A DNA stretch of 64,000 nt from Desulfomonilia bacterium (GCA_050014195.1 JBEKDT010000001.1:416001-480000), one strand, 5' to 3'. Shown: positions 18,514-52,757, counted from the stretch's first letter. Program-made: numbers and translations. The notes: generated by a model from the sequence alone, not told the origin.

Positions 18514-18639
18514 GTCCTGTCGGATAAGACTAATCCTGCAACACAGGAAACCACTTCGAAATACCATGGTACACATATTTTAATAATCTAATGAAATTAT
18601 TGTGGAATTAATCTTTCGAAAAGTTGGTATAGGAATTGT
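18514..18639 (+). promoter_or_regulatory. tandem enhancer sites + sigma54 promoter (locus 1)
   Basis: GTCCT-N7-AAGAC (18514) and ATCCT-N7-AGGAA (18533), AT-rich spacer, TGGTAT-N5-TTGT (18625). Confidence 0.65.
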
Positions 18640-18689
18640 AAGTACCCACCCCATGTCAATAATCTTTATTTTTGATGAGGAGCTCATAT

Positions 18690-18965
18690 ATGTACAGGAA
18701 GAAGAACCGCGATGAGGTTTCAAAAACAAAGGAATTCACTGCTATCGACCCGTTGTACGATCTCATCGAGATCATGGGTGACCATCTCGTTCGAGTTTAT
18801 GAGCACAGGGAGAAATCAAGAGAACAAATAGGTAGCTATAAACAACCCTGCCAGGACCGCCTGATCGTCGAAGCGATAGCTGAATTCCTTATGACAGGCA
18901 AGTTCCAGCTCAGATGCCCGATCAACGAGTGGGAAAATGTCAGTGTGGGAAGGTTTGAACGCTGA
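18690..18965 (+). CDS. small hypothetical protein (LYDL..E / G..[QR][LF] family), paralog of 39500-39763
   Basis: RBS GAGGAG; DPLYDLIEIM...VEAIAEFLMTGKFQL. Confidence 0.7.
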   Translation: MYRKKNRDEVSKTKEFTAIDPLYDLIEIMGDHLVRVYEHREKSREQIGSYKQPCQDRLIVEAIAEFLMTGKFQLRCPINEWENVSVGRFER

Positions 18966-18975
18966 GGGAGACTTT

Positions 18976-19170
18976 ATGAGCAGGGTTGTCTATCTTGTGG
19001 AAGAAGAATGTATCGGATGCGGAATGTGTCAGGATACATGCCCGGAGGTGTTCAAGCTTAACGAGGAAACCAACGTTGCCGAGGTCATCAAGCCTGAAGG
19101 AGGCCCTGAAGACCTCATCCAGGAGGCCATCGATTCATGCCCTGTCGAATGCATCCATTGGAAGGAATGA
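18976..19170 (+). CDS. single-cluster ferredoxin
   Basis: CIGCGMCQDTCP ... CPVECI; RBS GGGAG. Confidence 0.93.
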   Translation: MSRVVYLVEEECIGCGMCQDTCPEVFKLNEETNVAEVIKPEGGPEDLIQEAIDSCPVECIHWKE

Positions 19171-19242
19171 TCGCATCCATATGCGGGCTTGCATGGCTTC
19201 TATACATGCCGGCCACTTTGAGATTGAGATAGAATTCCTCTC

Positions 19243-19659
19243 TTACTCACCGATGATTTTCACCAGCACCCGCTTTTTCCGCCTCCCGTCGAACTCACCA
19301 TAGAAGATCTGTTCCCAAGGTCCAAAATCGAGTTTACCATCAGTGACTGCCACGACCGCTTCACGTCCCATGATCTGGCGTTTCAAATGTCCGTCCGCAT
19401 TATCCTCACCTACATTATGGTGGTACTGAGAAACAGGGCCGTGAGGAGCGAGCTTTTCGAGCCATACTTCAAAGTCATGGTGCAAACCACCCTCGTCATC
19501 ATTGATGAACACACTGGCTGTGATGTGCATTGCATTCACCAGCACGAGACCTTCCTTTACGCCGCTTTCTTTCAGGCACTGCCTTACTTGAGGTGTGATG
19601 TTGATGAACTCGACACGTTTGTCCGTGTTGAACCAGAGTTCCTTGCGAAAGGAATTCAT
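19243..19659 (-). CDS. YjbQ family (secondary thiamine-phosphate synthase) protein
   Basis: [30 protein letters not shown]. Confidence 0.92.
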
Positions 19660-20114
19660 CGTTTATCCCCATCATGCCTTCTTAACTCCATTGCCCATGA
19701 GGATACCATTAACCCTTCGTGAAACAGCACTCCTCGGTTTTCGTACTGTTCCGGTTCAAGCTGCCGAAGGTATTCCATCCCTGTAGAGGCCCCGTCCTCT
19801 GAGCTGAATGCGGATAGAATGGAATCTCCTACAACGGCATAAACGCCATACAGCGTCCCAAGGGTGGGGTTCCGCGAGCACCAGGTAGTCGTAAGGCCGT
19901 CTCTTTCAAAGGGGACAATCTCATAGTGATTCGTAAATTCCAAGCGGTTCTCTCCGAGCATCTTCATGGTACCTTCATTCACCCATAGATCGCCCTGGTG
20001 AATGATGCTCACTGTTCCTTCAGCCGCAACAGCTTTACCCTGATTATCTATGTACGTGCCTAACGCATGCCATGTTCCCGGGTGGAACAGAAAGGTGTGC
20101 CTCGTGGTTTCCAT
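19656..20114 (-). CDS. conserved hypothetical beta-rich protein
   Basis: ORF overlapping the yjbQ-like start; HTFLF.PG.W...G and NPTLG.L.G patterns; RBS AAGGGG. Confidence 0.7.
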
Positions 20115-20314
20115 GTTTGCCCCCCTTATGAGATACTTCATGATGCATAAAAAAATCTAGTCCAGCATCCACACTGGCCTTGGTGATGATACGAGAATAA
20201 TACAGCCGATGTATGAAGCGCAAGTGTTGAACATATTACGTTGCAGCAAAACAGGACAGGAGGACTTGATTATAACAACGGCAATGGAGACAAAAAGTTT
20301 TTGTATCTTGCGGC

Positions 20315-20884
20315 TTACCTTCTTTTCTTATAATCCTTTCCCGAGCAGAAGGCCTTGCCTGCATAGTCTCCAACTTTCCAGTATTGGTTGTCAGGCATGG
20401 TTAAAAGCAGGGGGTCCATCTTCTTGATATCGGGCCTGCCCTCCGTAAGGCATCCCTCACCGGCATAAGCCCCGACAATCTCACCTATGTAGAAGGTATT
20501 GGTAGGGAACTCCATGGTCTTATTGAGCTCGCACTCCAAACACAAAGGGCATTCCTCGATCATGGGTGCAGTTTTGAGCTTGCCGTAGAATACATGAAAG
20601 AGGCCGGCTTTATCGGCCTTCTCGCCTGATACTATACCGCAGTAGTCGGTGATCTCCATCATCTCGGCGTTGGGGAAATTTATGCTGAAAGTCTTAGTCT
20701 CGGCTATGCCTGGACAGGTGTAGTGGTGCCTGCCCACACCCACGCCGATCATCGGCGGATTCGCATTGACCCGGGTGATCCACCCCAGGGCCATGAAGTT
20801 GGGCTTGGCGTTCACCTGGGTTCCCAGGAGGGTGACCGGCATGGGAAAGACAAACGTGTTCGCCCCGATATCCACTTTCTTCAA
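20315..20884 (-). CDS. flavin reductase / flavoredoxin family protein
   Basis: PMPVTLLG, NFMALGW, DYCGIVSG, APMIEECPLCLEC. Confidence 0.9.
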   Translation of the reverse strand: MKKVDIGANTFVFPMPVTLLGTQVNAKPNFMALGWITRVNANPPMIGVGVGRHHYTCPGIAETKTFSINFPNAEMMEITDYCGIVSGEKADKAGLFHVFYGKLKTAPMIEECPLCLECELNKTMEFPTNTFYIGEIVGAYAGEGCLTEGRPDIKKMDPLLLTMPDNQYWKVGDYAGKAFCSGKDYKKRR

Positions 20885-23800
20885 GCACTCTTCCCCTTCA
20901 GATAATTAATCATGGGCTGAGTGACCAGCGGCACCACCTCTCCTATCATGTGGGGCATGAGGTTGGCAACGACCTTTGGCATGAGCTCAGGCATCTGCTC
21001 GCGCATGTAGTCGGGCATGGGGATGCGCTCGGAGACCTTCTTGAGCATAGTAGGCATGACCTTGGGCATCATCATGGGCAGCAGCCTCGGGAACAGGACC
21101 GGGAACATGGGCTTCATGAGGTCGAGCGCACCCGGAATTTTGCCCATAATGCGCATCATGGGCCCCATGCCGAACGGCATGGCAGAGATGAGCTCGGACC
21201 ACATGGTACCCATGAGGTCGGCGAACCCCTGCGGTGTCATGAGTGCTATCATGGCCTCGAACACGGCCCACTGCTTCTGCACTTCGGGATTGGGATCAGG
21301 GAAATCATACCCCAGGGCGGAAGAGGCGAATCGCGCCAAGTCCACTATTTCGAGCGGCATCTTCTTTTTTTCCGCAGTGACCCGGAACTGGAACTCGCAG
21401 CACGGGCACAGGGCCAGGACCTTCTGGGCTCCGGCATCCAATGCCTCGTTCAGACGCGTCTCCCCGATATCGGCGGCTACCAGGGGCTCCTTGAGGAGGT
21501 TGAGCACGCTCCCGCAGCAGTGCGCCTCGGCATGATGATAATCCATCTCCACGAATTTCACATGGGGGATCGCCTTGATGAGGTCCCGTGGCTCTTCATA
21601 AACACCCGATACACGGCCCATGTGGCACGAGTCATGCCAGGTTACCGTAACCTCTTCCTGCCCCGTATCCGGGAAGGTGAACTCGCCCGATCTGATCTTT
21701 TCCGAGAGGATCTCGCTGTAGTGGCGTGCCGTTATGTCATAATCGATACCCAGCTTTTTAGCCCATGTCGGGTAGACATGTCGCCACATCATATTGCATG
21801 CAGGGCAGGATGTAATAACGGTGTCACTGCCGGCTTCTTTGACAGCCTTAATGTTCCTCCTCATGATCGCTTCAAACACATCCCACTTGCCGGCAACCAG
21901 CATGGGCGTGCCGCAGCAGTTTTCCTTGTTGCCAACATAGGTGAAATCCACCCCTGCCTTATCCAGCAGCCGCACACTCGCCATGCCGATGTCCTCTTCC
22001 ACATAGCTCGCGGTACACCCTGCGAAATAGACGTTCTTGGCCTTTGTGCCGGGGCCGTGCTTCTCCTTGAGGTCTTCTGGGAACCACTTGGCTCGGTCCT
22101 TACGGTAGCCGGCCCATATGTTGCCTTCCTTCATGGCTGCCGCCGACATGATCTCAAAGGGAGGGAAGGTCATCTTCTTTTCCTCATCTACGAGCTTGCC
22201 CCTGAGCTTCATCCAGGAAGGCTCTATGGGAAGCGCTGCAGAGCAACGGAAATTGCAGAGCTCGCAGGTGGTGCAGACCAGTATGGTGTCCACCATCTTC
22301 TGGTTCCACTCCTGCTTGCCTTTCATATACTCCCGCAACCAGTACCACTTGCCCCTTGGGCTCTGGCTCTCCCATCCGCGGCCGTAGAACTGATCACACT
22401 CATCCACACAGTAGCCGCACTGGGAGCAGCTGTAGGCATACCAGGCCACATCAGGCGGGATATCCCGAACATCTTTTTCAGGCCTCTCCCCCACTTCCGT
22501 GATAATGGCATAACTGAAAGGCCTGATGAGCGGCTCGAATATGCTCCCCAGTCTGACGGCAGTCCCGATGAGTCCTCCTCCGAGCACCTTGCCGGGGTTC
22601 AGTATCCCCTTGGGGTCGACCTTCTTTTTGAATGACTTCATCCGGGCAAGGCGGTCTTTTCCGAGGACCGCCTTTGCCTTGTTCTTGAAATAGAGCCCTG
22701 TGGCATACGCTCGTCCGCCATATTTTTCAGCAATCTTCATGACCGTGAGCGACAGAGGGAAGACGAAGTTGTAGCTGAACTTCCGCTCATCGCTCGGGAT
22801 GAATCCGAGGATGACCACCTCGGGCTTGCCGGATGCCGATTTCCTGATGACCACCCCCTCCTTGACCACGGGCTGCTGGATGGTGCTCTCCACCTTCTTC
22901 ATGAAGTCGCCGAAGGAAGACAGCGGGATGACCACTTCGGCGGGTACAAGACTTGGACCCAAGCGCTTCACCACCATGAGCTTGAATCGGTGCTTCCATT
23001 CATGGTACGCAATTTTATCACTCAGGATCTCTGCCTCGCACAGTTTGATGATCTTGCCGAGGCCGCTCATAACCTGCCCTGCGTCCTTCTTACGGAAGGT
23101 GAGCGTGATGATGTAGGATGCAGGCAGGAGCACCCGCTCCTCTGCCGGGTGGCCCCAGTGCTCCATCATAGGTGCCTGGTTCTTCATCTCCGCCATCTTC
23201 GGGTTGATGAACACGATGGACCATATGGGCAGGCCTTCGGATATCATTGCCTCCATGAGCTTCTGGAGGTCATGGGGGTTCGGACAGCCGATGGAGACCA
23301 GATCCATGGGCTCATCAAGCTGTACCTTAATGGTGATCTCGCCGATCAGCCCGGTTATGCCTTCCGCATCACTGATCATATCGAGATCTTTCCCCTCGAA
23401 CACGCTGACCGTACCATCGGGAAGCACGACGCGGGCACTCAGCACGATGTCCCTGAACCAGCCGGCTTCAAACGAACCGAAGCCTGCACCTCCCTGGGCA
23501 AGCCAGCCTCCTGCTGTTGAGCTCGGGTAGCTGGAAGGATAGGTAAGCAGCGTGAGGCCTTTCTTCTTCAGCTCGCGGTCAAGCCCTTCCCAAACAATAC
23601 CAGGCTGGACAGTGGCTGTAAGCTTATCTTTATCGATAGAAAGCACCTTCTTCATGCGGTAGAAATCCACCACGATGCCGTTCTCAACGGGCAAAACTCC
23701 GCCGTAGCCCGAAGAAGCCTTGCCCCTCGGGGTGAGCGGGATATGGTTTTTGGCGGCCCACATCACCAGTTCTTTCAGCTCCTCTTCGCTCTGGGGCTGC

Positions 23801-23967: not shown

Positions 23968-24013
23968 GCCTCCTGTGTGCTATCCCGCTGAGTTAATCGG
24001 AGCTGTTCCTGCA

Positions 24014-25303: not shown

Positions 25304-25386
25304 AACTTCCTCCTTGTGTTTCTTAAGATATCGATACCTGGCTCATGCAGTGGGTACTCTGGATAAGAATCTCCTTTTACATGGTG

Positions 25387-25722: not shown

Positions 25723-25829
25723 TCTTCGCTCCTTAAAAGTGTTGATTTCTTTTGCACCGGGATTCTTGCTTATGATAACAAGGTCTCATCCCGTGAGGTT
25801 AAGCATAAACCAGCTCAGTGGCGCGGTCA

Positions 25830-30661: not shown

Positions 30662-31189
30662 TCAGATTTGGGGTTCTACCAAAGCAAGCTCTCCGTCCTG
30701 GCGTTTGTAGATAAGATTGAGCTGCTTTGAATCCGTGTTCTGGAAGATAATAAAGTTTTGTGGTGCTTCACCCATCTCCATGACGGCCTCGTCAACACTC
30801 ATGGGCCTGACGGGATAGTTCTTCTCATAGATGAGGCGCTGTTTTGCCTTTTTGCTGACCGGGGGCGCAGCTGCCACTGTTGCCGCCTTACCCTGCTGGG
30901 TCTTCTTACCCTGGAGCTTCTCCTTGTACTTCTTGAGCTGCCTTTCAAGCTTATCCATCACCATGTCGATGGCTGCATACAAGTCCTCGGTGATCTCTAC
31001 GGCGTTGATGACCGTGCCGTCCGCGGTGAGGGTGACATCAGCCTTGTGCCGGCGCTTTTCCACAGAAAGGACGACATGCGCTTCAGCGGTGCGGTCGATG
31101 TATCTGTCCATCTTCGAGAGCCTTTTGAACGCGTAGTCTTTCAGCGCATCGGAAGAGTCAATGTTCTTAAAGGTAATGTCGGTCTGCAT
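30662..31189 (-). CDS. hpf: ribosome hibernation promoting factor (long HPF)
   Basis: ITFKNI.SS.AL, DLYAAIDMVMDKLERQL, PMSVDEA; follows rpoN. Confidence 0.93.
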   Translation of the reverse strand: MQTDITFKNIDSSDALKDYAFKRLSKMDRYIDRTAEAHVVLSVEKRRHKADVTLTADGTVINAVEITEDLYAAIDMVMDKLERQLKKYKEKLQGKKTQQGKAATVAAAPPVSKKAKQRLIYEKNYPVRPMSVDEAVMEMGEAPQNFIIFQNTDSKQLNLIYKRQDGELALVEPQI

Positions 31190-31218
31190 AAATCCTCCTC
31201 TCGTGGTTAAACAATGAT

Positions 31219-32598
31219 TTAAAAGTGTTTCTTCCTCCGGTTTGAAGGAAGAATACCAAGCAGCTCACGGTACTTGGCAACGGTCCTGCGTGCTATCCTC
31301 ACCCCTTTCCCTTTCAGTTTATGGGCTATGGCCTGGTCGCTCAGGGGATGTTTGGCATCCTCCGCCTTGATGATATTTTCAATTTCATTCTTAACGCTCT
31401 GGGATGCGATAAAACTTCCGTCGCTCTTGGATATACCGCTGTTGAAGAAATACTTGAGCTCGAATGTGCCCTGGGTCGTATGCACATATTTATTAGATGT
31501 AACCCTGCTGATGGTGGATTCATGCATGCCCACATCATCGGCAACGTCTCTGAGGACTAATGGTTTCAGGTTCGTGATACCGTGGTCGAGAAAATCTTTC
31601 TGGAACTTGACGATGCTCTCTGTGACCTTGCACAGGGTATTCTGCCTCTGCTGGATGCTCTTTAAAAGCCACTGGGCAGACTTGTAGCAGTCGGAGAGGT
31701 AGTCCTTGGCCATCTTGCCCATATTGTCGGACTTCATCATGATCTGGTATTCTTTGTTGAGCTTGAGCATGGGCAGATCCTCCTCATTGAGCAGGATCAT
31801 ATACTCCCCCTCCATTTTCACCACATACACATCCGGGACGATGTACTGGGGGGGATCGTCTGAGTAATCACGGGCGGGACGGGGTTCCATGTTGACGATG
31901 ATCTGGGCGGCCTGTGCCACATCATCCACGGTTGCAGAAAGCTCCTGGGCGATCTTGTTGTAGTTTTTGGTCTGGAGGTCCTCCAGGTGGGAATCGATTA
32001 TCCTCCACACCAGGGTGTTCTCCAGGTCCAGTATTCTCGCCTGGATCCTGAGGCAGTCCTTCAGGTCACGCGCCGCGATGCCGGGAGGGTCGAACCGCTG
32101 AACCTTGACAAGTACCGACTCAACTATGTCGGGTGTTGACCCGGTTTCCTGGCATATGGTCTCGGTATCAAGCCCCATGTAGCCGTTATGATCGAGGTTG
32201 CCGATGATGAAGAGGCCCACTTCCTGTTCTTTATCGGTAAAATCATTCAGTCTCAACTGCCAGAGGAGATGGTCCATGAGCCCTTCGGGTTTGCAGGTAG
32301 TGGACTCGATGGAGGGCCGCTCATCGTCTTCATAGTAGGGGATATTGTCCTGGCCGTATGTCTCCAGGTAGGCATCCCACCTTTGCCTGAGCTGTTCCTT
32401 CTCCTTGACGGATTCGGGGGTGTCCTCGCGTACACGGGCAATTTCCACATCGAGCAGCGGGTTTTGTTCGAGCTCGCTGTCGATATATTCCTGCAGCTCG
32501 AGCCTGCTAAGCTGCAGGAGTTTGATAGCCTGCTGGAGCTGTGGCGTCATTATGAGCTGCTGCGCCAGCTTGAGATGTTGCTTAAGCTCCAAGGCCAT
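31219..32598 (-). CDS. rpoN: RNA polymerase sigma-54 factor
   Basis: MTPQLQQAIKLLQLS, HESTISRV, ARRTVAKYRE RpoN box. Confidence 0.98.
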   Translation of the reverse strand: MALELKQHLKLAQQLIMTPQLQQAIKLLQLSRLELQEYIDSELEQNPLLDVEIARVREDTPESVKEKEQLRQRWDAYLETYGQDNIPYYEDDERPSIESTTCKPEGLMDHLLWQLRLNDFTDKEQEVGLFIIGNLDHNGYMGLDTETICQETGSTPDIVESVLVKVQRFDPPGIAARDLKDCLRIQARILDLENTLVWRIIDSHLEDLQTKNYNKIAQELSATVDDVAQAAQIIVNMEPRPARDYSDDPPQYIVPDVYVVKMEGEYMILLNEEDLPMLKLNKEYQIMMKSDNMGKMAKDYLSDCYKSAQWLLKSIQQRQNTLCKVTESIVKFQKDFLDHGITNLKPLVLRDVADDVGMHESTISRVTSNKYVHTTQGTFELKYFFNSGISKSDGSFIASQSVKNEIENIIKAEDAKHPLSDQAIAHKLKGKGVRIARRTVAKYRELLGILPSNRRKKHF

Positions 32599-32610
32599 CC
32601 TTAACTCCTC

Positions 32611-33339
32611 CTAGAGAGAAAAGTCCTTACCCACATAGATCTGCTTGACCTTCTCATTCGCCACAACCTGTTCCGGGGTTCCTTCCTCAATTACAAGACC
32701 CTGATGGATAATATATGCCCTGTCACATATCTTCAGGGTTTCTTTTACATTATGATCCGTAATAATGACACCAATTCCCAATTTTTTCAAGTTTACTATC
32801 ATATCCTGAATGTCATTGACCGTGATGGGGTCAATCCCTGCAAAAGGCTCATCCAGGAGCATGTATGCGGGGCTCAGGGCCATGGCCCTGGCGATCTCCA
32901 CCCGGCGCCTCTCACCTCCGGAGAGAGAGACGCCTTTTTGAGTACGCACTTGATCAAGACCGAAGCTTGCCACGATCTCATCACGGTGCTGTTTCAGCTC
33001 AATCCCTTTCAACCCCCTGGCCTCCAAGGGGACAGAGATGTTGTCTTCCACGCTCAACCCCCTGAACACAGAGGGCTCCTGGGGCAGGTAGCCGATGCCT
33101 CGCATGGCGCGACCCGCGAGATCGATGCCGGTGATGTCGTCAGTACCGAGAAATACCTTGCCCTTGTCCGGGCGGATGAGACCCACGATCATGTAGAATG
33201 TCGTGGTCTTCCCCGCTCCGTTCGGGCCGAGCAGTCCGATGATCTCGCCCTTGTTGCAGGCAATGGAGAGGCCTCTGATGACGTACACCTTCCCAAAGCT
33301 CTTCTCAAGGCCATCGGCCTTCAGCGTCATTTCCCCCAT
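32611..33339 (-). CDS. lptB: LPS export ABC ATPase
   Basis: GPNGAGKTT, YLPQEPS, LSGGERRR, DEPFAG, TDHNV. Confidence 0.96.
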   Translation of the reverse strand: MGEMTLKADGLEKSFGKVYVIRGLSIACNKGEIIGLLGPNGAGKTTTFYMIVGLIRPDKGKVFLGTDDITGIDLAGRAMRGIGYLPQEPSVFRGLSVEDNISVPLEARGLKGIELKQHRDEIVASFGLDQVRTQKGVSLSGGERRRVEIARAMALSPAYMLLDEPFAGIDPITVNDIQDMIVNLKKLGIGVIITDHNVKETLKICDRAYIIHQGLVIEEGTPEQVVANEKVKQIYVGKDFSL

Positions 33340-33833
33340 TGCATGATCCCCGTACTCTCTCCGGCATTCACCCGAACTTTCACCCTGCGGCCGGCACCTT
33401 CAACCACCTGAGTGTCGTTTTTCTTATCCAGTGTCACCTTCTGGCCGATGATTTTCTCCTGGCCTCTGGTGATGACGACATCACCCGTCATTACCATTAC
33501 ATCACTGACAAGATCATACACCGCCTTGGCACATGTTGCCTCTTTGTCTTTCCATAAGATATCCACATCACCTTCAGCGGTTAACATGTTGACCTTGTGT
33601 GATTTCTGGTCGTAGACCAACGTCAGGGTATTTCCCTTGACCGTGATATCGGGTTTCGTAGCCTTCACTCTGCCTTTGAATATCGCTGTACCGTTCTTGG
33701 TGTTCACGTCCAGTCTGTCCGCCTCGATGTCAACCATATCGGATACCTTAGGCGGTGTCTTGAGGCCTTCCGCATGAAGGGCATACGGCCAGAGAAGGCT
33801 AAAGATTAAGAATATTCTGCATAACCTTTGCAT
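33327..33833 (-). CDS. lptA: LPS transport periplasmic protein
   Basis: signal peptide, IEADRL, beta-jellyroll pattern; synteny lptC-lptA-lptB. Confidence 0.85.
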   Translation of the reverse strand: MQRLCRIFLIFSLLWPYALHAEGLKTPPKVSDMVDIEADRLDVNTKNGTAIFKGRVKATKPDITVKGNTLTLVYDQKSHKVNMLTAEGDVDILWKDKEATCAKAVYDLVSDVMVMTGDVVITRGQEKIIGQKVTLDKKNDTQVVEGAGRRVKVRVNAGESTGIMQWGK

Positions 33834-34332
33834 GGACCCTTCCGATACAAGCGATATTGGTGAATTGGTCGGAAAATTCCGCCCTGTCGGCCGTGATGAC
33901 TCCACTTTCCCCCTCGATAACTATTGGGTTATCCGTATGGGCAAAATTCTTTACCCTATCCCAGGTGAGGTTATTGAGCCTGGCGCGGGACCCGTTTTGT
34001 GTTTCAATGTTCACCGGTCCCTTAACCTCAAGGATGGATTTGGCGCGATCGTAGAAGGCATCTACACCGCTCAGCTTTAGCCCGCCGGTCTGTGTAAGGA
34101 CAAAGTCTTTGAGACGCACGTCTTGATCCCCTGTCTCATCCACCTCCCGGGCGGACACTTCCATGGTCTTGTTATTTTGGCGATTGCGTTCGTACATGAC
34201 TACATTCATGGCCTGTCGCCTTGGCTGCGTGCCCTTATTCAGGGATGGCGCCATTTGATTATCGCGGGAAACGGAGATGATGAAAGCCAGTACGACGATC
34301 ACACCCGTCAATAGAATCAGCTTATTCCACAT
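33799..34332 (-). CDS. lptC: LPS export protein
   Basis: N-terminal TM anchor, beta-rich domain; synteny. Confidence 0.8.
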   Translation of the reverse strand: MWNKLILLTGVIVVLAFIISVSRDNQMAPSLNKGTQPRRQAMNVVMYERNRQNNKTMEVSAREVDETGDQDVRLKDFVLTQTGGLKLSGVDAFYDRAKSILEVKGPVNIETQNGSRARLNNLTWDRVKNFAHTDNPIVIEGESGVITADRAEFSDQFTNIACIGRVHAKVMQNILNL

Positions 34333-34825
34333 AGCGTTCCATGATCTTGTCGAAAAGCCCCTCGCGCTTCAGGATGATCTCTATGGCCTCCCTGACGGCG
34401 CCGTGACCGCCCGGCCTCGTGGTAACCACTTCGGCCCTCTCCTTGACCATATCCATGGCATCGGCCGGGGCAAAGGTCATACCGCACAGGGCCATGGGGG
34501 GAATGTCCACCACATCGTCCCCCATGTAGGCCATATTGGTCGTGCTTATGCCGAGTTTCTGCGCCGCTTCCAACAGTGCCGGCTTCTTGTCTATTGCCCC
34601 CTGGAAGACGTGCGTAATACCGAGCTCATGCGCCCTGTACTCCAGTGCCTTTGATGTCCTGCCGGTGATAATGACCACCTCGATACCGGCCCGCAGGAGC
34701 ATCCTCAGCCCGTGTCCGTCCTTGCTGTTGAAGGCCTTGATCTGGATACCTTCATCGGTGAAGTAGATGGAAGAGTCTGTCAGTACGCCATCCACATCGA
34801 GCACCAGGCACGAGATCTTGTTCAT
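34322..34825 (-). CDS. kdsC: KDO-8-phosphate phosphatase
   Basis: DVDGVLTD, KDG, GDDVVD, GGHGAVRE. Confidence 0.95.
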   Translation of the reverse strand: MNKISCLVLDVDGVLTDSSIYFTDEGIQIKAFNSKDGHGLRMLLRAGIEVVIITGRTSKALEYRAHELGITHVFQGAIDKKPALLEAAQKLGISTTNMAYMGDDVVDIPPMALCGMTFAPADAMDMVKERAEVVTTRPGGHGAVREAIEIILKREGLFDKIMERYVE

Positions 34826-35634
34826 GAGGTTACCTCGTGGATCTTTTTCAGCTGTACTAAAAGAGGTTCCAGCCGATCGAGCCTCAGGCTGTTCGGGCCG
34901 TCGCTGAGTGCCTGATCCGGGTTGTCGTGCACCTCCAGGAAGATACCGTCAAGCCCGAAGGCCACACCGGCCCGGGCAAGCTGAACGATATACTCGGCAT
35001 TGCCACCCGATGATGAGCCCTGTCCTCCGGGGAGTTGGAGACTGTGGGTCACATCGAGGATTACGGGAAAGCCGAGCGAACGCATGACGGCAAGGCTCCT
35101 CAAATCGCACACCAGGTTGTTGTAGCCCAGACTCACTCCGCGTTCGGTAAGGATAATAGCATTGTTCCCGGTGCTTTGCACCTTTGCTGTTACATTGCCC
35201 ATGTCCCAGGGTGCCATGAACTGTCCCTTCTTGATGTTTACCGGCAGGCCCGTCTTGCCTGCTGCAACGAGGAGATCGGTCTGCCTGCACAGAAAGGCAG
35301 GGATCTGGAGCATGTCCAGGACATGAGCGGCAGGACCTGCCTGCAAAGGGTCGTGGATGTCCGAGGTGACGGGGATGGAAAGACGTTTCTTGATATCCAG
35401 AAGGATATGAAGGCCCATCTCGAGACCGGGCCCCCGGTATGAATCGATGGATGAGCGGTTCGCCTTATCAAAGGATGCCTTGAAGATATAGGGGATCCCC
35501 ATGCGGGAGGTGATATCGCGAATACTTTCCGCCATGAACAGGGCATGGTCCTGCGATTCAATGACGCACGGGCCCGCGACCAGCACCAGATCGCCGGAAC
35601 CGATAGTGATGTCATGAATCTTTACCTTTTGCAT
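34822..35634 (-). CDS. kdsA: KDO-8-phosphate synthase
   Basis: AGPCVIES, KASFDKANRS, QIPAFLCRQTD, KKGQF. Confidence 0.97.
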   Translation of the reverse strand: MQKVKIHDITIGSGDLVLVAGPCVIESQDHALFMAESIRDITSRMGIPYIFKASFDKANRSSIDSYRGPGLEMGLHILLDIKKRLSIPVTSDIHDPLQAGPAAHVLDMLQIPAFLCRQTDLLVAAGKTGLPVNIKKGQFMAPWDMGNVTAKVQSTGNNAIILTERGVSLGYNNLVCDLRSLAVMRSLGFPVILDVTHSLQLPGGQGSSSGGNAEYIVQLARAGVAFGLDGIFLEVHDNPDQALSDGPNSLRLDRLEPLLVQLKKIHEVTS

Positions 35635-35833
35635 ATACCCCTGCCGCACGTGATTACTTTAGCCGCCGATCCAAAATGATAATCGGTGCTCCTGCTAGGG
35701 GATTTATCGTATGGTACGTGGGGTGTCAAGCAATCAGAAGATCAAAACACGCTAAAAGAGCACGGCTGTTTAGAGGGGCCGGGATAGGGGTTGACTACTC
35801 GATTCTGGATACTAATTATCTTTCTCCGTGACC

Positions 35834-37555
35834 ATGAAGGCATACCCGAGGGAAGATCTATCCATTGTGCTTTCCGGTGAAGCAGGACAGGGCCTGCAGA
35901 CCTTGGAACAGCTGATGCTGAAGGTCTTCAAGCTCTCAGGATACCATGTCTTTTCCTATAGCGAATTCATGTCGAGGATCAGGGGTGGGAACAACTCCAC
36001 CCAGATACGGATCTCTGCAAAGAGGGTTGCGTCTTACCTCAGAAGGATCGATATATTCGTTCCGCTCAATGCCGGCGCCATGGAACGGTTTCACGACCGG
36101 ATAACCCGTGAAACGGTCATCCTGGGCGATCGTACATTCATTGACAAACAGTACTTCGATGAGGGCTATCCCATTGGGGAGGTACCCATTGGAGAAATTG
36201 CCAGGGGGATCGGCGGACCGGTTTATACGAATATCCTCGTGCTCGGGATATTTGCAGGGCTCTTAGGGCTTGAAATGGGTCTGCTTGAAAATCAGGTGAG
36301 GCAATTCTTCAGCAAAGCCGGAGATGAACGTACCGGCAAGAACATTGATGCGGTAAGGAAGGGCTTCGACACAGGCTCTCACGTGCTTAAATCGGGCCAG
36401 GTCCTTCCCGTCATCACAAAATCGGAAGAAGTGAAGAATGAGCTCCTCATGAACGGTGTCGATGCAATAGGCATAGGAGGTCTTGCCGGAGGATGCACGT
36501 TCGTCTCATCCTACCCCATGTCTCCATCAACCGATGTCCTGGTGTTTTATGCCAGGAATGCACACGATTTCGGGCTGGTGGTGGAACAGGCGGAAGATGA
36601 AATAAGCGCCGTCAACATGGCACTTGGTTCCTGGTATGCCGGGGGGAGGGCTTTGGTGACTACCTCAGGGGGAGGATTTGCGCTGATGGTGGAGGGGGTG
36701 AGCCTTGCCGGATGCATCGAGTCTCCCCTGGTCATCCATATCGGCCAGCGCCCCGGCCCTGCAACAGGCCTTCCTACCCGCACCGAACAGGCTGACCTGG
36801 AGCATGCCCTCTACTCCGGCCATGGTGAATTCCCCAGGCTGATCCTGGCGCCCGGTACCATAGAAGAGGGGTTCTGGCTTACACGCCATGCCTTCCGGAT
36901 GGCAGATAAGTACCATATCCCTGTTTTTATCCTTACGGATCAGCACTATCTCGAATCCAATCATACCTTGAACCGCCTGGATATCCCGGAGCCGTTAAAC
37001 GAGAGCTTTATCAAAGAGACAGACACCGCATATAAACGCTATTTGTTCACGGAAAGCGGCATCTCACCAAGGGGCATACCCGGCTTCGGCCAGGGGCTGG
37101 TTTGCGTGGACAGCGACGAACATGATGAGAACGGATATATCACGGAAGACTGTTCGGTGCGATCTTCCATGGTTGAGAAGCGGCTTCGGAAACTTAAGGC
37201 CATGGAAACCGACACGATAGCGCCGACACTCACCGGAGGGGATGACTATCGGCATCTTGTCGTCGGGTGGGGTTCGACCTATAACGTCGTCAAGGAGGCC
37301 CTGGAAATCCTCCAACGAAAAGACCTCTCCTTCCTGCACTTCTCCCAGGTGTATCCACTCCACCCGAAGGCCCGTGAACTCATCAATCGGGCAAAAAAAA
37401 GGTTCATCATCGAGAACAATGCCACGGCCCAGTTCGGAAAATTGATCAGACTGCATACAGGAATCGAGCTTGATGGGAAGATTCTCAAGTTCGACGGCAT
37501 GCCGTTCATGCTCGAAGAAGTCGTAGAGCAGCTGGATGCCCTGATGGGAAGGTGA
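35834..37555 (+). CDS. 2-oxoacid:ferredoxin oxidoreductase alpha subunit (gamma-alpha fusion)
   Basis: GEAGQG, SRIRGG, YPMSP, EDEISA, TSGGG, RPGPATGLPT. Confidence 0.95.
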   Translation: MKAYPREDLSIVLSGEAGQGLQTLEQLMLKVFKLSGYHVFSYSEFMSRIRGGNNSTQIRISAKRVASYLRRIDIFVPLNAGAMERFHDRITRETVILGDRTFIDKQYFDEGYPIGEVPIGEIARGIGGPVYTNILVLGIFAGLLGLEMGLLENQVRQFFSKAGDERTGKNIDAVRKGFDTGSHVLKSGQVLPVITKSEEVKNELLMNGVDAIGIGGLAGGCTFVSSYPMSPSTDVLVFYARNAHDFGLVVEQAEDEISAVNMALGSWYAGGRALVTTSGGGFALMVEGVSLAGCIESPLVIHIGQRPGPATGLPTRTEQADLEHALYSGHGEFPRLILAPGTIEEGFWLTRHAFRMADKYHIPVFILTDQHYLESNHTLNRLDIPEPLNESFIKETDTAYKRYLFTESGISPRGIPGFGQGLVCVDSDEHDENGYITEDCSVRSSMVEKRLRKLKAMETDTIAPTLTGGDDYRHLVVGWGSTYNVVKEALEILQRKDLSFLHFSQVYPLHPKARELINRAKKRFIIENNATAQFGKLIRLHTGIELDGKILKFDGMPFMLEEVVEQLDALMGR

Positions 37556-37558
37556 GGA

Positions 37559-38422
37559 ATGGGAACGGAATTCGACATTGATTACCCTGCGGATATTGCG
37601 TGGTGCCCCGGATGCGGAAACTATCATATCCTCACGGCGCTCAAGGCCGCTCTTTCGGAGCTGGCACTCCATCCGGCATCGCTCGTCTTCGTATCCGGAA
37701 TCGGACAGGCGGCCAAGACCCCTCAATATCTGAAGACCAACTACTTTAACGGCCTCCATGGGAGATCTCTGCCTGTTGCCACGGCGGTCAAGGTGACGAA
37801 TCCGGAGCTTACGGTCATTGCTCAGAGTGGTGATGGATGCATGTACGGCGAAGGGGGCAACCATTTCCTCCATGCCATTCGAAGAAACCCGGACATCACG
37901 GTGATCATCCACAACAATATGGTGTACGGGCTTACCAAGGGACAGGCATCTCCCACGAGCATGCGGGGCTTTGTTACACCCATACAGGTGGGTGGGGTAT
38001 GCATGGAGCCCTTCAATCCTCTGGCCCTTGCCATTGCCCTGAATGCATCGTTTGTTGCGAGGGCCAATGCAGGGGACGAGGAGCAGACAAAGGAAATCCT
38101 GAAAAAGGCCATCACTCATAAAGGATTCGCAATCGTTGACATATTGCAACCCTGCGTATCATTCAACAGGGTTAACACCTACCAGTGGTACAAGGATCAT
38201 ACGTATTATCTCGATGATTCCCACAATCCATCCGACAGGGATGCCGCCTTCTCAGCAGCAACCCGATCGGACAGGTTTGCCCTGGGACTGATTTATATCG
38301 GTTCAGGAATACCCACCTTCTCCGAGTGTCAGGATGTCTATAAGACCGATCCCCGGCCGCTCTATCAACATATGGCGAGCCGTGAAAAGATCGAATCCTT
38401 GCTGAATGCAAAGAGGATATGA
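37559..38422 (+). CDS. 2-oxoacid:ferredoxin oxidoreductase beta subunit
   Basis: WCPGCG, LHGR, GDG...N TPP motif, [11 protein letters not shown]. Confidence 0.95.
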
Positions 38423-39219
38423 GAATGAACCTTACAGGCAGGGTAGCCGTCATAACCGGTGCAGGACGAGGTCTTGGCAAGGCTATAGCCCTTGCTTTTG
38501 AACTATCAGGTGCCAATGTTACTTTGTTCAGCCTGTTGGAGGATGAACTGAAAGATATCGCCGCCGACCTTGAAAAGCTCGGCGGAGAATATCTCCTGCA
38601 TACCGGAGATGTGTCGGATGAGCATGATGCGGCTTCTGTGGTTGCTGAAACTTTTGCACGGTTCAGCAGAATAGACATCCTTGTGAACAATGCAGGCATC
38701 ATCGGGCCGGCGCGGTTCCTTGAGGATGCCGTGCCGTCAGAATGGAAGCAGACATTAGATGTGAATCTTACCGGAAGCTATCTCTTTTGCCGGGAGGTGA
38801 TTCCTTACATGATCAAACAGGGAGGCGGTAAAATCATCAATATCGTTTCCGGACTCGGGCAGATGCCGTTCCCGCGTTTCTGTGCATATTCGGTATCCAA
38901 AGCCGGTCTCATCCAGCTTACTCGGTCGCTCTCTGAAGAATTGAACCCCTTCAATATTCAGGTTAATGCCATCGATCCCGGCCTGATGGATACAACTATG
39001 GGAAATGAAATTCGCGCTATGGGCCCTGACGCACTTGGCCAGGGCCTGTACAACCAGATGATCGGGTATAAGGAGCAGGGTATATTAAAAGACCCCAGAG
39101 ACATAGCGGATCTCGCGGCATTTCTTGCATCATCCGATTCAGGGGATATGACAGGTCATATCGGAACCACGAAATACTACCGTACTCTCGGATGGAAACC
39201 AAGCGAGCCGAATATTTAG
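38419..39219 (+). CDS. SDR family oxidoreductase
   Basis: [17 protein letters not shown]. Confidence 0.93.
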
Positions 39220-39274
39220 CAAGTACTCCTTTTTTAAATCATATCAACACCGATCTTCATCCTAAGATTCGATA

Positions 39275-39411
39275 TTCCTGCGAAAAAGGATTTGTCCTGT
39301 CCCACAAGACAATCAGCGATAAACCACAAGGAATGAGGAAACCCGTAGATGCTAATAATATAATGAAATTATTTAACATTAAATATTCTACCGCGATGGC
39401 ACGCCTATTGA
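39275..39411 (+). promoter_or_regulatory. tandem enhancer sites + sigma54 promoter (locus 2)
   Basis: TTCCT-N7-AGGAT (39275), GTCCT-N7-AAGAC (39294), AT-rich spacer, TGGCAC-N5-TTGA (39397). Confidence 0.7.
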
Positions 39412-39499
39412 ATACATCAGATGATAAGAGATATGAGTGCCAGCCATGTAATCAAAGGCAGGACTCGGGTTATGAAGATTAATCACGTGGAGGTTAGTC

Positions 39500-39763
39500 A
39501 TGAATTCATATACGGAATCAAGCTTAGGCAAGGATGGATCGAACACTACGAGAATAACCACACTCTACGATCTTATGGAAGAGATCAATGCAGAACAGAT
39601 CAGCCCACAAAGGGATCCAGGCAGTTACAGTATCCAGGACCCTGCGGGGAATGGTCGATTCAGTCCGGCGGCAGAGAAGGTTTTTCAGATGTTTGAATCG
39701 GGACAAATCAGGTTCAAGAATCTCCAGGATGTCAAAAGAAAATATGCTGGGTGGCTATTCTGA
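39500..39763 (+). CDS. small hypothetical protein, paralog of 18690-18965
   Basis: RBS GGAGG; TTLYDLMEEI...AEKVFQMFESGQIRF. Confidence 0.75.
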   Translation: MNSYTESSLGKDGSNTTRITTLYDLMEEINAEQISPQRDPGSYSIQDPAGNGRFSPAAEKVFQMFESGQIRFKNLQDVKRKYAGWLF

Positions 39764-39846
39764 CATCAGTCATGAACACCAAGGTTAAATTCGGCAATAA
39801 ATGCCACGCCTGACGGCATGGTAATTCTATGGGGAAGGAAATACCT

Positions 39847-40629
39847 ATGGACAACTCTTATGATTATATGGATTTTCAACAATACTACAGGGAAATTCAG
39901 CAATACCCAACTCTAACCCATGAGAAAGAGTATGAACTGGCAAAACAATATCAAAAGGGCGACGAAGCTGCCGGACAGCAATTAATCCAGGCGAACCTCA
40001 GGTTTGTGGTGAGGGTGAGCAGGAAATATTTTTATTGCGGTCACCATTGCCTCGAGATCATTCAGGAAGGAAACCTTGGTCTCATCAGAGCCCTTAATCG
40101 TTTTGACCCTGAGCGAGGGATACCTTTTGTCTACTATGCAGTTTGGTGGGTTGAAGCCTTCATCAAGGCTTTCATGCACAAGAGCGGAAAGGTGAACACG
40201 GGGAGTCTGAGTCATGCCAAGAAATTGCACTCATTGGATGAACACCTTGGAAACGATGACGATAAAGACCGATGGATTGATTTTCTCACAGATGGTGCTG
40301 ATCCGGAGAAAATGTATAATGGCAGGGAGTCATCTCAAAATATTTCATCCGTACTCCATCATTGCTTCACCTTCCTCTCTCCAAGGGAAATATCTGTCCT
40401 GAAACAACGATTTTATTCTGATCCGCCTGTTAAGCTTAAGGAAATAGGGATGCAACTTGGTGTAAGCAGAGAACGTGTCAGACAAATCCAGACAAGATCC
40501 ATGGAAAAATTAAAACAAATTTTAGAAGATCAGGTAAAGGGCCTTTGGGAGTCAACAACCCATGATTCCCATCCACTCACCGAGATCAATCAACTGGGGT
40601 TTATACGGAGAGGAGAATATCAAAACTGA
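39847..40629 (+). CDS. RpoH/sigma32-like sigma70-family factor with short region 3
   Basis: region 1.2 YYREIQQYPTL, region 2 NLRFVV..QEGNLGL..FDPERG..YAVWW, region 4 GVSRERVRQI. Confidence 0.85.
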   Translation: MDNSYDYMDFQQYYREIQQYPTLTHEKEYELAKQYQKGDEAAGQQLIQANLRFVVRVSRKYFYCGHHCLEIIQEGNLGLIRALNRFDPERGIPFVYYAVWWVEAFIKAFMHKSGKVNTGSLSHAKKLHSLDEHLGNDDDKDRWIDFLTDGADPEKMYNGRESSQNISSVLHHCFTFLSPREISVLKQRFYSDPPVKLKEIGMQLGVSRERVRQIQTRSMEKLKQILEDQVKGLWESTTHDSHPLTEINQLGFIRRGEYQN

Positions 40630-40686
40630 AGTATCCCTCTTTACTGAAACACTCTGGCATGTTTTGATCTAAGATTTCTTTACATC

Positions 40687-42117
40687 TTGGAGAAAAGACT
40701 TTATCATGTTCAAGTGCCCATAGGTAATCAGGAAAAGATACTTGTTATCGATGATGACAATCTTGTCTGCAGTTCCATAGCAAACGTTGCTAAAGCCTTG
40801 GGATACAATGCTACGACAGCCCTTACCCTGAAAGAAGGCATCGAGTCGGTTAACAAGGAACCGTATGATGTAGTGTTTCTTGATGTGCATATGCCTGATG
40901 GGAACGGGATCGAAATGCTTCCCAAAATCTGCCAGAGTGGCGGCCGACCTGAAGTTATCGTCATAACCGCCTATGGAGATCCGGAATCAGTCGAGACAGC
41001 CCTTTCCCGGGGGGCCTGGGATTACATTGAAAAACCCTTTTCGAAGAACGATCTTGTCCATCTGTTAAAAGATGCAATTCTCTTTCATGAAAGCAATAAG
41101 CAACCATTGATCAGCGTAGATTTTGAGAAAGAGGGGATCATTGGTAAGAGTTCCCAGATGAGAGAATGCCTGGCATTACTAAGCAAGACATTAAACAGTG
41201 ATGCCAATGTGCTGCTTACCGGCGAAACAGGAACGGGTAAAGATCTCTTTGCGCTGGCAATCCACAATAACTCCAGCCGCGCCAAGAATAACTTTATTGT
41301 GGTCGACTGTGCCTCCTTGCCCCCGAATCTGGTGGAAAGCATTCTTTTCGGTCACGAGAAGGGATCATATACCAGTGCGGATAAAGCGCAGCAAGGTCTG
41401 GTCATACAGGCCCACAGGGGGACACTGTTTCTGGATGAAGTGGGTGAACTCCCCCTGTCCATCCAGCAAAAGTTCCTGCGTATCCTCCAGGAGGGTCGCT
41501 TCCGTCCTGTCGGAAAACCCACTGAGATTGAAAGCGATTTCAGAATCATATCTGCCACAAACCAGAATCTGGACAATTTAGCAGAGATAAAAAGATTCCG
41601 AAAAGATCTCCTCTTCAGACTCAAATCCATCACCATCCATCTCCCTGCACTCAGAGATCGACCCGAGGATATCCTGGAATTGACAAATCACTACCTGCAA
41701 AAACTCTGCAAGAAATATGGCATGAAACCAAAGCGCCTCAGTACTGCATTTAGAGATACCATCATGCAGTATGCCTGGCCCGGTAATGTACGTGAATTGA
41801 TTCACGCACTGGAGAGCTCGCTTACGGTTGCACATGATAGTGCCATCCTGGTCCCAAAACATCTTCCACACCATATTCATGTGCAGGTGAAGCAAAATAC
41901 TGTTGCAGCTAAAAAAAAGAAACCGCTGCGCATTGCGACAAACAACAGCCTTTCCAGCCTCAATGAGGTGCGGGAAGAGGCTATCGCTGAGATAGAACAG
42001 CAGTATCTTAAGGAGTTGATGATCCGGACAAAAGCCCATATTGAGACAGCCTGCAGAATATCCGGGCTATCCCGCTCGCGTCTCTACGCCTTGCTGAAGA
42101 AGTACAACATATCATAG
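40687..42117 (+). CDS. sigma54-dependent response regulator (REC-AAA+-HTH, NtrC family)
   Basis: IDDD/FLD receiver, GETGTGKD, GHEKGSYTSA (GAFTGA variant), LFLDEV, WPGNVREL, SGLSRSRLY HTH. Confidence 0.93.
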   Translation: MEKRLYHVQVPIGNQEKILVIDDDNLVCSSIANVAKALGYNATTALTLKEGIESVNKEPYDVVFLDVHMPDGNGIEMLPKICQSGGRPEVIVITAYGDPESVETALSRGAWDYIEKPFSKNDLVHLLKDAILFHESNKQPLISVDFEKEGIIGKSSQMRECLALLSKTLNSDANVLLTGETGTGKDLFALAIHNNSSRAKNNFIVVDCASLPPNLVESILFGHEKGSYTSADKAQQGLVIQAHRGTLFLDEVGELPLSIQQKFLRILQEGRFRPVGKPTEIESDFRIISATNQNLDNLAEIKRFRKDLLFRLKSITIHLPALRDRPEDILELTNHYLQKLCKKYGMKPKRLSTAFRDTIMQYAWPGNVRELIHALESSLTVAHDSAILVPKHLPHHIHVQVKQNTVAAKKKKPLRIATNNSLSSLNEVREEAIAEIEQQYLKELMIRTKAHIETACRISGLSRSRLYALLKKYNIS

Positions 42118-42146
42118 TATTCTTGAATCGATATTTCATACGTGCA

Positions 42147-42282
42147 TTCCTGCCGGAAGAGACTAGTCCTCCCACACAGGACAATCAGCATTCACTCTTG
42201 AAAGATATGCGTATCATGAAATCATGTAACAAACTAATATTACATGCTGTCTCTTAATCTTCAACAATGGCATGGTAATTGA
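42147..42282 (+). promoter_or_regulatory. tandem enhancer sites + sigma54 promoter (locus 3)
   Basis: TTCCT-N7-GAGAC (42147), GTCCT-N7-AGGAC (42166), TGGCAT-N5-TTGA (42268). Confidence 0.7.
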
Positions 42283-42327
42283 GTATCCTTGTACGAAGGC
42301 ATCCCAGAGAGAAAGGTACTGAACGAT

Positions 42328-42651
42328 ATGGAAAATAAGATTTTGCTGTTGTCAGTAATTATGTTTTTCGGATTCTCGGTCCTTTCAGGGGCTACACCCA
42401 TTGAATTTAAAAATCGGCATGTAATCCTTGGCTATACCCCCATAACCTTGAGACAGCCTTCGGCCCAAGTGGGTAAGGCCTTCTCTGTCGGGGTGCATAA
42501 CATTAAAAACACACTCGCGTTTTCTATGAGTGAACTCAAGAATACTTCTGCTCCCGCCCCTCTACCCAAGCCCTCAACCCTTTTTCTTCTTGGTTGTGGA
42601 ATTATTTTCTCCGTTGGTTTCAGCAAAAGATACAGGCAACACAAAGAATGA
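42328..42651 (+). CDS. small PEP-CTERM-like surface protein (PKP variant)
   Basis: signal peptide ending SGA-TPI; C-terminus PLPKPSTLFLLGCGIIFSVGFSKRYR. Confidence 0.7.
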   Translation: MENKILLLSVIMFFGFSVLSGATPIEFKNRHVILGYTPITLRQPSAQVGKAFSVGVHNIKNTLAFSMSELKNTSAPAPLPKPSTLFLLGCGIIFSVGFSKRYRQHKE

Positions 42652-52756: not shown

Positions 52757-52757
52757 T

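Follow-up and report, generated by a model that had tools for sequence, protein, structure and literature searches.

Conserved tandem enhancer sites and a probable sigma-54 regulon with a second sigma factor among its targets in a Desulfomonilia bacterium

Results

Three intergenic regions of one architecture

The 64,000-nt stretch of DNA analysed here, referred to as the window, stems from a Desulfomonilia bacterium (GCA_050014195.1, JBEKDT010000001.1:416001-480000; positions are counted from its first letter) and contains three separate regions in which two imperfect palindromes of the form DTCCT-N7-ARGAH precede a sigma-54-type -24/-12 promoter. Between the second and the third region lies the gene of an NtrC-type response-regulator enhancer-binding protein (40687-42117, in the following the activator), which probably acts on all three of them. 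A first-pass annotation had placed the six palindromes at 18514/18533, 39275/39294 and 42147/42166, and direct reading located all of them at exactly these positions, including the right half of the 42147 site, which reads GAGAC. The TGG starts of the promoters (18625, 39397 and 42268) and the gaps of 76, 87 and 86 nt between site end and TGG were confirmed likewise, as were the AT-rich spacers (70-77% A+T vs 49% in the window) and a non-canonical -12 element at all three promoters (TTGT, TTGA and TTGA). According to the annotation of open reading frames (ORFs) and domains, all three regions are indeed intergenic. The first tandem site (upstream activating sequence, UAS 1, at 18514) is flanked by a minus-strand enoyl-CoA hydratase gene and a small ORF, UAS 2 (39275) by an SDR gene and a small ORF, and UAS 3 (42147) by the activator gene and the gene of a small secreted protein.

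With up to two mismatches allowed, the tandem pattern occurs in the window at these three loci only, corresponding to 6 matches (three loci on two strands) vs 0.37 expected, a number that was reached by none of 100 shuffled sequences. This test is circular, since the pattern had been taken from the same three loci. The single palindrome is weakly enriched in the window (13 vs 5.35 expected, with 3 of 100 shuffles reaching 13). An independent position weight matrix (PWM) of 38 columns was built from 19 unique sites of other genomes, leaving out the window and its near-identical relative L001. Its best matches in the window start at 39276, 42148 and 18515 (scores in Table 1), followed by the reverse strands of the same loci, the next locus reaching 9.0 bits and the maximum over 20 shuffles 15.3 bits. 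As a matrix trained elsewhere ranks only these loci high, the window holds exactly three such sites, and the random distribution of the motif that the first-pass annotation had named as the counter-case was not seen in it. Furthermore, the tandem is directional: the plus strand, which faces the promoter, outscores the reverse strand at all three loci. A fourth promoter-like string (TGGCAT-N5-TTGA, 53117-53131) was rejected as a chance match, because it lies antisense within the ORF of an ERCC4 nuclease and has no upstream site.

Conservation and linkage to the activator gene

A scan of genome contigs with the activator protein yielded 73 loci. The activator of L001 is 98% identical to that of the window and those of L002-L019, L021 and L022 are 59-77% identical; the remaining loci (at most 51%) were treated as other members of the family, and L060, of the same bin as L021, contains the missing end of the gene truncated there. 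The related set thereby comprised 21 genomes, all of them metagenome bins titled Desulfomonilia, Syntrophaceae or "delta proteobacterium", which form 13 groups at an activator identity of at least 90%, with the window grouped with L001. A tandem site followed by [T/C]GGCAY-N5-TTG[A/T] was found within the fetched locus in 20 of the 21 genomes with an activator orthologue, i.e. in 12 of the 13 groups, the sites of L019 and L060 being confirmed by eye. The sole exception is L013, on whose 7.4-kb contig no tandem site with promoter was found. For comparison, a relaxed scan of all 1.26 Mb matched 2 of the 51 loci with more distant activators, weakly and at 166 and 188 nt from a promoter-like string, besides spurious matches at window position 7675 and at L002 11426.

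The distance between site and promoter is almost fixed. Among the 24 tabulated sites the gap to TGG amounts to 84-88 nt in 22 (88 nt in nine, 87 nt in five, 86 nt in two, 85 nt in four and 84 nt in two), and the other two are one helical turn shorter (76 and 74 nt, one site each). At two additional sites (L006 and L010) a similar promoter follows after 155-157 nt. When one genome per group was considered, the half-site columns carried a mean of 1.48 bits and the interspersed columns 0.60 bits; between the window and L001, three substitutions were found within the site at 39276, all of them outside the half-sites. In the most divergent orthologous locus (L019, 11843-11877) the palindromes are, as judged by eye, 20 and not 19 bp apart, the activator carries the loop GAFTGA and the promoter reads TTGA.

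Two gene orders recur. In the first (window, L001, L008, L016 and L017), a UAS is followed by the genes of the small protein and the sigma factor, in some cases a kinase gene, the activator gene, a second UAS and a PEP-CTERM gene. In the second and commonest order (L002, L003, L005-L007, L010, L011, L018 and L022, and by motif search L004 and L009), kinase and activator genes are followed by an 80-aa gene, the UAS and the small-protein gene, and in the ten loci that reach the sigma gene, 2-2.5 kb further on, a larger gene occupies the gap. Beyond these orders, the site of L012 precedes a desulfoferrodoxin gene and then the sigma gene, and in L015 and L060 the site stands immediately before the sigma gene, which is the most constant target among the related loci. 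Because the sites stay with the activator gene across these rearrangements, whichever side the targets lie on, the motif was assigned to the activator by the customary comparative argument. Phylogenetic footprinting, which the first-pass annotation had suggested as a check, thus finds the tandem site and the promoter kept beside the activator orthologue in two gene orders, and this linkage supports the earlier proposal that the protein encoded at 40687 would act through these sites at sigma-54 promoters.

The activator, its kinase and a stand-alone DNA-binding domain

The receiver of the activator scores 93.4 bits (PF00072), with the DDD, FLDVHMPD, T and K residues visible, the AAA+ domain 207.6 bits (PF00158) and the AAA lid 72.9 bits. 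The protein stays below the NCBIfam equivalog cut-offs of NtrC (344.5 vs 558.6), AtoC (333.8 vs 714) and PrsR (TIGR02915, 299.5 vs 502.6), and its closest solved relatives are NtrC4 and NtrC1 of Aquifex. The recognition helix SRSRLYALL of the helix-turn-helix (HTH) is invariant in all orthologues, and most distant relatives differ. In all four relatives checked (L002, L008, L012 and L016), a hybrid histidine kinase gene immediately precedes the activator gene; these kinases carry PAS domains and a C-terminal receiver, and two of them also GAF.

Fourteen of the 21 related loci, and not the window, carry the 80-aa gene between activator gene and tandem site. Its product corresponds to the C-terminal DNA-binding domain of the activator as a stand-alone protein, with 49-64% identity and the helix SRSRLYALL kept, and the gene has its own sigma-54-type promoter upstream (TGGCAYATAnnTTGTTA). 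Upstream of this promoter, no UAS of the same type was found consistently across the 14 loci. The domain could compete or cooperate with the activator at the enhancer.

Promoters, spacers and sigma-54

The -24 elements of the window are canonical (TGGTAT, TGGCAC and TGGCAT), and GG is present in all 24 tabulated promoters, as GGCA in 23 and as GGTA at window position 18625. The -12 elements of the same promoters read TTGA in 19 cases, TTGT in five and TTGC in none, and lie within a conserved TTGAATA. When all [T/C]GGCAY-N5-TTGN strings of the orthologue set were counted (L020 included, L001 excluded), the last base was A in 30, T in 23, C in 4 and G in 2. With a weak -12 element, the closed complex is loosened.

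The HTH (HESTISRVT) and the RpoN box (ARRTVAKYRE) of the sigma-54 encoded in the window are identical to those of a solved sigma-54. There is thus no sign of an altered sigma-54 as the cause of the non-C base at -12, and sigma-54 itself offers no reason for the deviation. The neighbourhood of rpoN is a usual one (30662-35649, minus strand), with a kdsA-like gene of the DAHP-synthase family, a HAD phosphatase gene, lptC, lptA, an lptB-like ABC ATPase gene, rpoN and hpf.

In seven loci with more distant activators (L026, L034, L036, L037, L044, L050 and L062) a sigma-54-type promoter, often with TTGT or TTGA, lies about 0.8-1.1 kb after the GAFTGA codons, directly past the activator gene. Since the promoters of distant family members thus often read TTGT or TTGA, a non-C base at -12 may be common in this part of the activator family or in the phylum. 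One spacer of the window contains an element resembling the consensus of integration host factor (IHF). The relaxed IHF consensus occurs at that fixed position in 7 of the 24 spacers and in one of the three of the window, which is suggestive only.

Target genes

The first-pass annotation had described the small proteins encoded at 18690 and 39500 as paralogues. Direct BLASTP of the two is weak (E 0.36), a result superseded by the profile comparison: a profile of 20 relatives of the 39500 protein, from which the 18690 protein had been excluded, matched the latter in hhalign with a probability of 92.8% (E 3.9e-7), which bears the claim out. The motifs (T)TLYDL[MI]E and QDRxIAxxIAxMFxSGxIRF are common to both. 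The family comprises 41 representatives among 1.84 billion proteins and 97 members in a set of 5.8 billion clusters, all of them "hypothetical" and free of Pfam domains, the named sources being Desulfomonilia or deltaproteobacterial bins. No fused or longer forms were found, which is weak evidence, and a search of the ESM Atlas with the small protein gave no usable match. Within the 5' leaders of 12 small-protein genes, no pairs of a conserved RNA structure were predicted. The ferredoxin named in the first-pass annotation was verified (PF13370, Fer4_13, 64.9 bits), and its gene is probably co-transcribed with the small gene at 18690.

The product of the gene at 39829 had been called an RpoH-like sigma factor. 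It belongs to the sigma-70 family as claimed; the assignment to RpoH did not hold, as the protein reaches 167.9 bits where TIGR02392 demands 323.1 bits and its best solved relative is RpoS (129 bits vs 83 bits for RpoH). Region 3 is also missing in the roughly 60 closest clusters listed, down to about 40% identity, after which the scores fall sharply. In L002, a 593-aa LonB/LonC-like AAA protein is encoded between the small protein and the sigma factor (12871-14652); the gap of about 2 kb at the other loci of the second gene order suggests the same Lon-like gene, L002 being the one that was checked. A protease-like partner in this position points tentatively to regulated proteolysis.

The PEP-CTERM-like protein behind the third promoter has a degenerate tail and fails PF07589 (14.2 vs 20.7 bits, covering profile positions 5-24 only). 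The positional counterparts in L012, L014, L016, L017 and L021 all pass this cut-off (five of five, 20.9-30.5 bits), in agreement with the first-pass annotation. No exosortase (EpsH) was detected among the scanned ORFs of the window. The gene at 42760-43125, absent from the earlier annotation, is probably an additional member of the regulon and probably stands second in the 42268 operon: in L012, the gene of its homologue (37% identity) comes first after the UAS and promoter. Further probable members were noted in relatives, namely the desulfoferrodoxin (superoxide reductase) ahead of the sigma gene in L012 (3224-3879) and a GalT-like uridylyltransferase behind a strong tandem site with the long gap of 155-157 nt (L010 11287-12649, L006 20645-22007). 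Taken from sequence, the targets loosely point to redox or stress protection and to the cell surface.

Table 1 Features of the regulon in the window and corresponding genes in related loci (L numbers).
Feature	Position	Strand	Remarks
UAS 1	18514..18549	+	two imperfect palindromes, 19-bp period; predicted position -136 to -103; PWM 35.1 bits, rank 3 in window
Sigma-54-type promoter TGGTAT-N5-TTGT	18625..18639	+	weakest -24 of the three; 76 nt past UAS 1
91-aa small protein (P0005)	18690..18965	+	paralogue of 39500 protein; no Pfam or NCBIfam match
64-aa single-cluster ferredoxin	18976..19170	+	Fer4_13; 10 nt past small gene
rpoN (sigma-54)	31219..32598	-	all three sigma-54 Pfam domains; hpf next
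UAS 2	39275..39310	+	tandem palindromes; predicted position -147 to -114; PWM 42.7 bits, top of window
Sigma-54-type promoter TGGCACGCCTATTGA	39397..39411	+	87-nt gap from UAS 2
87-aa small protein (P0001)	39500..39763	+	unannotated, lineage-restricted family
Sigma-70-family factor	39829..40629	+	regions 1.2, 2 and 4 (PF00140, PF04542, PF04545); no detectable region 3
NtrC-type response-regulator enhancer-binding protein	40687..42117	+	REC, AAA+, probable Fis-type HTH; alternative ATG start 40706
UAS 3	42147..42182	+	30 nt past activator stop codon; PWM 36.5 bits
IHF-consensus-like element	42227..42239	-	41 nt upstream of -24 TGG
Sigma-54-type promoter TGGCATGGTAATTGA	42268..42282	+	86-nt gap from UAS 3
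107-aa secreted protein, degenerate PEP-CTERM tail	42328..42651	+	signal peptide; P-K-P for P-E-P
121-aa Cys-rich, zinc-ribbon-like protein	42760..43125	+	authors' label; no family matched
Hybrid histidine kinase	46726..48180	+	HisKA, HATPase, REC; no PAS/GAF detected
Kinases of relatives	L002 7369-9969; L008 7060-8583; L012 4979-8857; L016 6176-10372		multi-PAS hybrid histidine kinases
80-aa DNA-binding-domain gene	L002 11665-11907; L016 11865-12107; L006 ~11809-12050

Autoregulation

Autoregulation of the activator, as proposed in the first-pass annotation, is plausible in the window and is not conserved across the relatives. In the window the genes of the small protein, the sigma factor and the activator run in the same direction, separated by 65 and 57-76 nt. 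No plus-strand terminator was predicted from 39763 to 42117, and the activator start is overlapped by a sigma-70-like promoter. Judged from this arrangement, a positive autoregulation on top of a basal promoter appears plausible. A general feature it cannot be, since the commonest arrangement, seen in 10 of the 21 related loci, has the activator gene upstream of the site.

Discussion

Proposed mechanism

Sigma-54 requires an upstream enhancer-binding protein and DNA looping. The tandem sites can be read directly, as can their conservation, the linkage with the activator gene and the domains of the encoded proteins. On this basis we regard it as likely that all three regions serve one regulon as enhancer-dependent sigma-54 promoters and that this regulon is controlled by the response-regulator enhancer-binding protein encoded at 40687-42117. 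The scheme that follows, with its binding, looping, phosphorylation, transcription starts and physiology, is deduced from sequence. Two dimers of the activator would place their C-terminal Fis-type HTHs on two palindromes resembling TCCTG-N5-CAGGA, centred 19 bp from each other at about -140 and -121. A hybrid sensor kinase would phosphorylate the receiver, whereupon the AAA+ domains would form the active ring. The spacer of about 86 bp, A+T-rich here and with the IHF-like element at one locus, would loop this ring onto RNA polymerase-sigma-54 at GGCAY-N5-TTG[A/T], and ATP hydrolysis would open the promoter. At 39397 the predicted output consists of the 87-aa protein, the sigma-70-family factor and, by read-through, the activator; at the other promoters it would be the paralogous small protein with the ferredoxin, and the PEP-CTERM-like surface protein with the zinc-ribbon-like protein. 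As the outputs include an alternative sigma-70-family factor, the system would represent a two-component cascade leading from sigma-54 to a second sigma factor. The conserved core consists of a PAS/GAF hybrid kinase and an NtrC-type activator, which via a sigma-54 promoter lead to an 88-aa protein of the small-protein family and the region-3-less sigma factor. The programme under the control of the system probably has to do with redox or stress and with the cell surface.

Points that weigh against the proposed regulon

Several observations have to be set against this assignment. On its own, the promoter pattern shows no enrichment in the window (4 vs 1.68 expected, with 12 of 100 shuffles reaching 4), and the -12 elements of the window (GT, GA and GA) are devoid of the canonical C. 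The HTH of the activator scores 20.1 bits (HTH_8, PF02954, E 5.4e-4) vs a Pfam cut-off of 22 bits. The distant activator L042 carries an identical recognition helix, and its locus contains no such site, so the helix alone does not define the specificity, and the stand-alone copies of the DNA-binding domain in relatives could bind the same sites. No kinase gene adjoins the activator gene in the window; the nearest hybrid kinase, 4.6 kb off, is 36-38% identical in its catalytic part to the adjacent kinases of L008 and L016 and is a candidate for the activator's partner. Furthermore, the comparison took in roughly 10 kb to each side of the activator gene per related genome, and the source organism is known from metagenome bins only.

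Finally, the L1 loop of the activator reads GSYTSA and not GAFTGA, with the Thr kept and the Phe replaced by Tyr. Tyr occurs in the loop of 21 of the 22 orthologous sequences including the window, L019 being the remaining one, and in 4 of 45 more distant activators. HrpS carries GAYTGA where GAFTGA is canonical (PMC3105312), and activators of Desulfovibrio vulgaris with the loop variants GAYTDA, GAYTGS and GSFTGA are regarded as functional (Kazakov et al. 2015, PMC4641369).

Both the loop Tyr and the non-C base at -12 are conserved, and a co-adaptation of the two was considered. This idea is weakened because relatives with a Phe loop also have a non-C base at -12: the candidate promoters of 10 distant Phe-loop activators read TTGT in four cases, TTGC in four and TTGA in two, and L019 combines GAFTGA with TTGA. 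Co-adaptation is consequently possible but unsupported. Work on PspF reportedly linked the loop Phe to the -12 fork junction, and the study of Zhang et al. in 2009 is said to deal with the GAFTGA phenylalanine.

Alternative explanations

A wider version of the proposed regulon would be a private Desulfomonilia cascade, in which a PAS/GAF kinase and a Tyr-loop activator (GSYTGA/GSYTSA) act on dedicated sigma-54 promoters with A or T at -12 and thereby on the region-3-less sigma factor and its 88-aa partner, the latter being an anti-sigma factor or adaptor, and in which the stand-alone DNA-binding domain of the 14 loci, behind its own sigma-54-type promoter, feeds back on the enhancer. In this complete form we consider the cascade doubtful.

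Alternatively, sites and promoters could be functional and be read by a different enhancer-binding protein, or by the stand-alone-domain paralogue as co-activator or competitor, the linkage of the activator then having another cause. Consistent with such a reader, the 80-aa copy with the same helix sits between activator and site in 14 of the 21 related loci, the helix is shared by the distant activator L042, and genomes of Desulfobacteria in this phylum encode up to 69 such activators (PMC12316311). The window and L001, however, lack the 80-aa gene and still retain all three sites, and in 20 of 21 genomes the sites stay with the full-length activator whatever the rearrangement. Moreover, a stand-alone DNA-binding domain has no ATPase and therefore cannot activate sigma-54 alone. 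On balance, another reader of the sites seems unlikely to us.

Still less can be said for palindromes of purely structural origin, i.e. hairpins that terminate the upstream genes, or copies of a dispersed repeat, which lie near -24/-12-like strings incidentally. A terminator scan does flag two of the palindromes on the minus strand (39312-39292 and 18548-18534), and two of the three sites follow a convergently ending gene. The flagged stems, however, are on the strand opposite to the upstream genes, and the site at 18515 comes after no co-oriented gene. What is conserved is the half-site sequence (TCCT...AGGA) and not mere complementarity, the promoter distance is fixed at 84-88 nt in 22 of 24 sites, and no further copies occur in the window, so that this origin is very improbable. 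A chance pattern, for which one may argue that the motif was defined after the data had been seen and that the promoter pattern alone is not significant, has next to no probability and was already refuted by the related-genome scan, the gap table and the PWM, as the matrix trained elsewhere recovers these loci only and 12 of 13 lineages have kept the arrangement.

Comparison with known systems

The proposed regulon resembles those of NtrC, AtoC and ZraR in its REC, AAA+ and probable Fis-type HTH domains and in a pair of neighbouring dimer sites roughly 110-150 bp ahead of a -24/-12 promoter, with a bendable spacer in between. For AtoC, two adjacent 20-bp sites at about -146 to -107 are reported, and the NtrC sites at glnAp2 are said to be centred near -140 and -108. 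The system differs from NtrC and AtoC in an activator below the equivalog cut-offs, another site sequence, the Tyr in the L1 loop, A or T at -12 and other targets.

With PrsK/PrsR (Haft et al. 2006, PMC1569441) it shares an NtrC-like regulator, an upstream motif and a sigma-54 promoter before single PEP-CTERM genes with long intergenic regions. Motif 1 of PrsR, however, ends in TTTACA about 63 nt from the promoter (PMC1569441), whereas the site described here ends in CAGGACA with a gap of about 86 nt. PrsK is a transmembrane kinase (PMC1569441), in contrast to the PAS/GAF hybrid kinases of the relatives, and PEP-CTERM genes form only one branch of the present regulon.

An enhancer-binding protein that turns on the gene of a second sigma factor together with sigma-54 is also found in the Rrp2-RpoN-RpoS pathway of Borrelia (PMC2940757, PMC3037356) and in the activation of hrpL by HrpR/HrpS in Pseudomonas syringae (PMC3105312), the latter sharing the Tyr loop in HrpS. 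Both cascades differ from the present one, in which the sigma factor is a lineage-specific, region-3-less protein and not RpoS or an ECF factor, the tandem enhancer is clear and conserved, an unannotated small protein would be co-transcribed and the host lineage is unrelated. The regulons of Desulfovibrio vulgaris (Kazakov et al. 2015, PMC4641369) were deduced in the same manner, from the link of an activator gene with a conserved motif ahead of a sigma-54 promoter; in the passages of the main text of PMC4641369 used here, supplementary tables aside, no regulon with a sigma-factor target or with this motif is described.

The first-pass annotation had spoken of an undescribed stress, developmental or surface programme. 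No description came up in full-text searches on sigma-54 regulons of Desulfovibrio, on PEP-CTERM proteins and sigma-54, and on sigma factors of Desulfomonilia (supplements aside), which agrees with the first part of this statement; a stress or surface nature would follow from the target genes. In our assessment the regulon is real, conserved and previously undescribed, and its architecture is textbook.

By this analysis a DNA motif, a promoter class and a target set are assigned to a previously unannotated regulator of an uncultured lineage of Thermodesulfobacteriota related to sulfate reducers, and an unannotated small-protein family as well as an unclassified sigma factor are tied to a signalling pathway. 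The result is a testable cascade from sigma-54 to a second sigma factor beyond the few pathogens in which such cascades are known. The conserved non-C base at -12 together with the loop Tyr offers a handle on the interplay of the loop and the -12 fork junction, co-adaptation not being indicated by the data, and the 38-column matrix can be used for finding the rest of the regulon in complete genomes of the group.

Other features of the window

An Rfam search over the whole window gave no match at the gathering score, and no tRNA genes were found in it. A RecD2-like helicase is encoded at 48240-50462, and the region at 51850-59000 is a patch of defence or mobile type, with genes for a DUF4143 ATPase, for a nuclease of ERCC4 type, for an IrrE-like peptidase with a fused HTH and for a zinc-ribbon-bearing Mrr-type restriction endonuclease.

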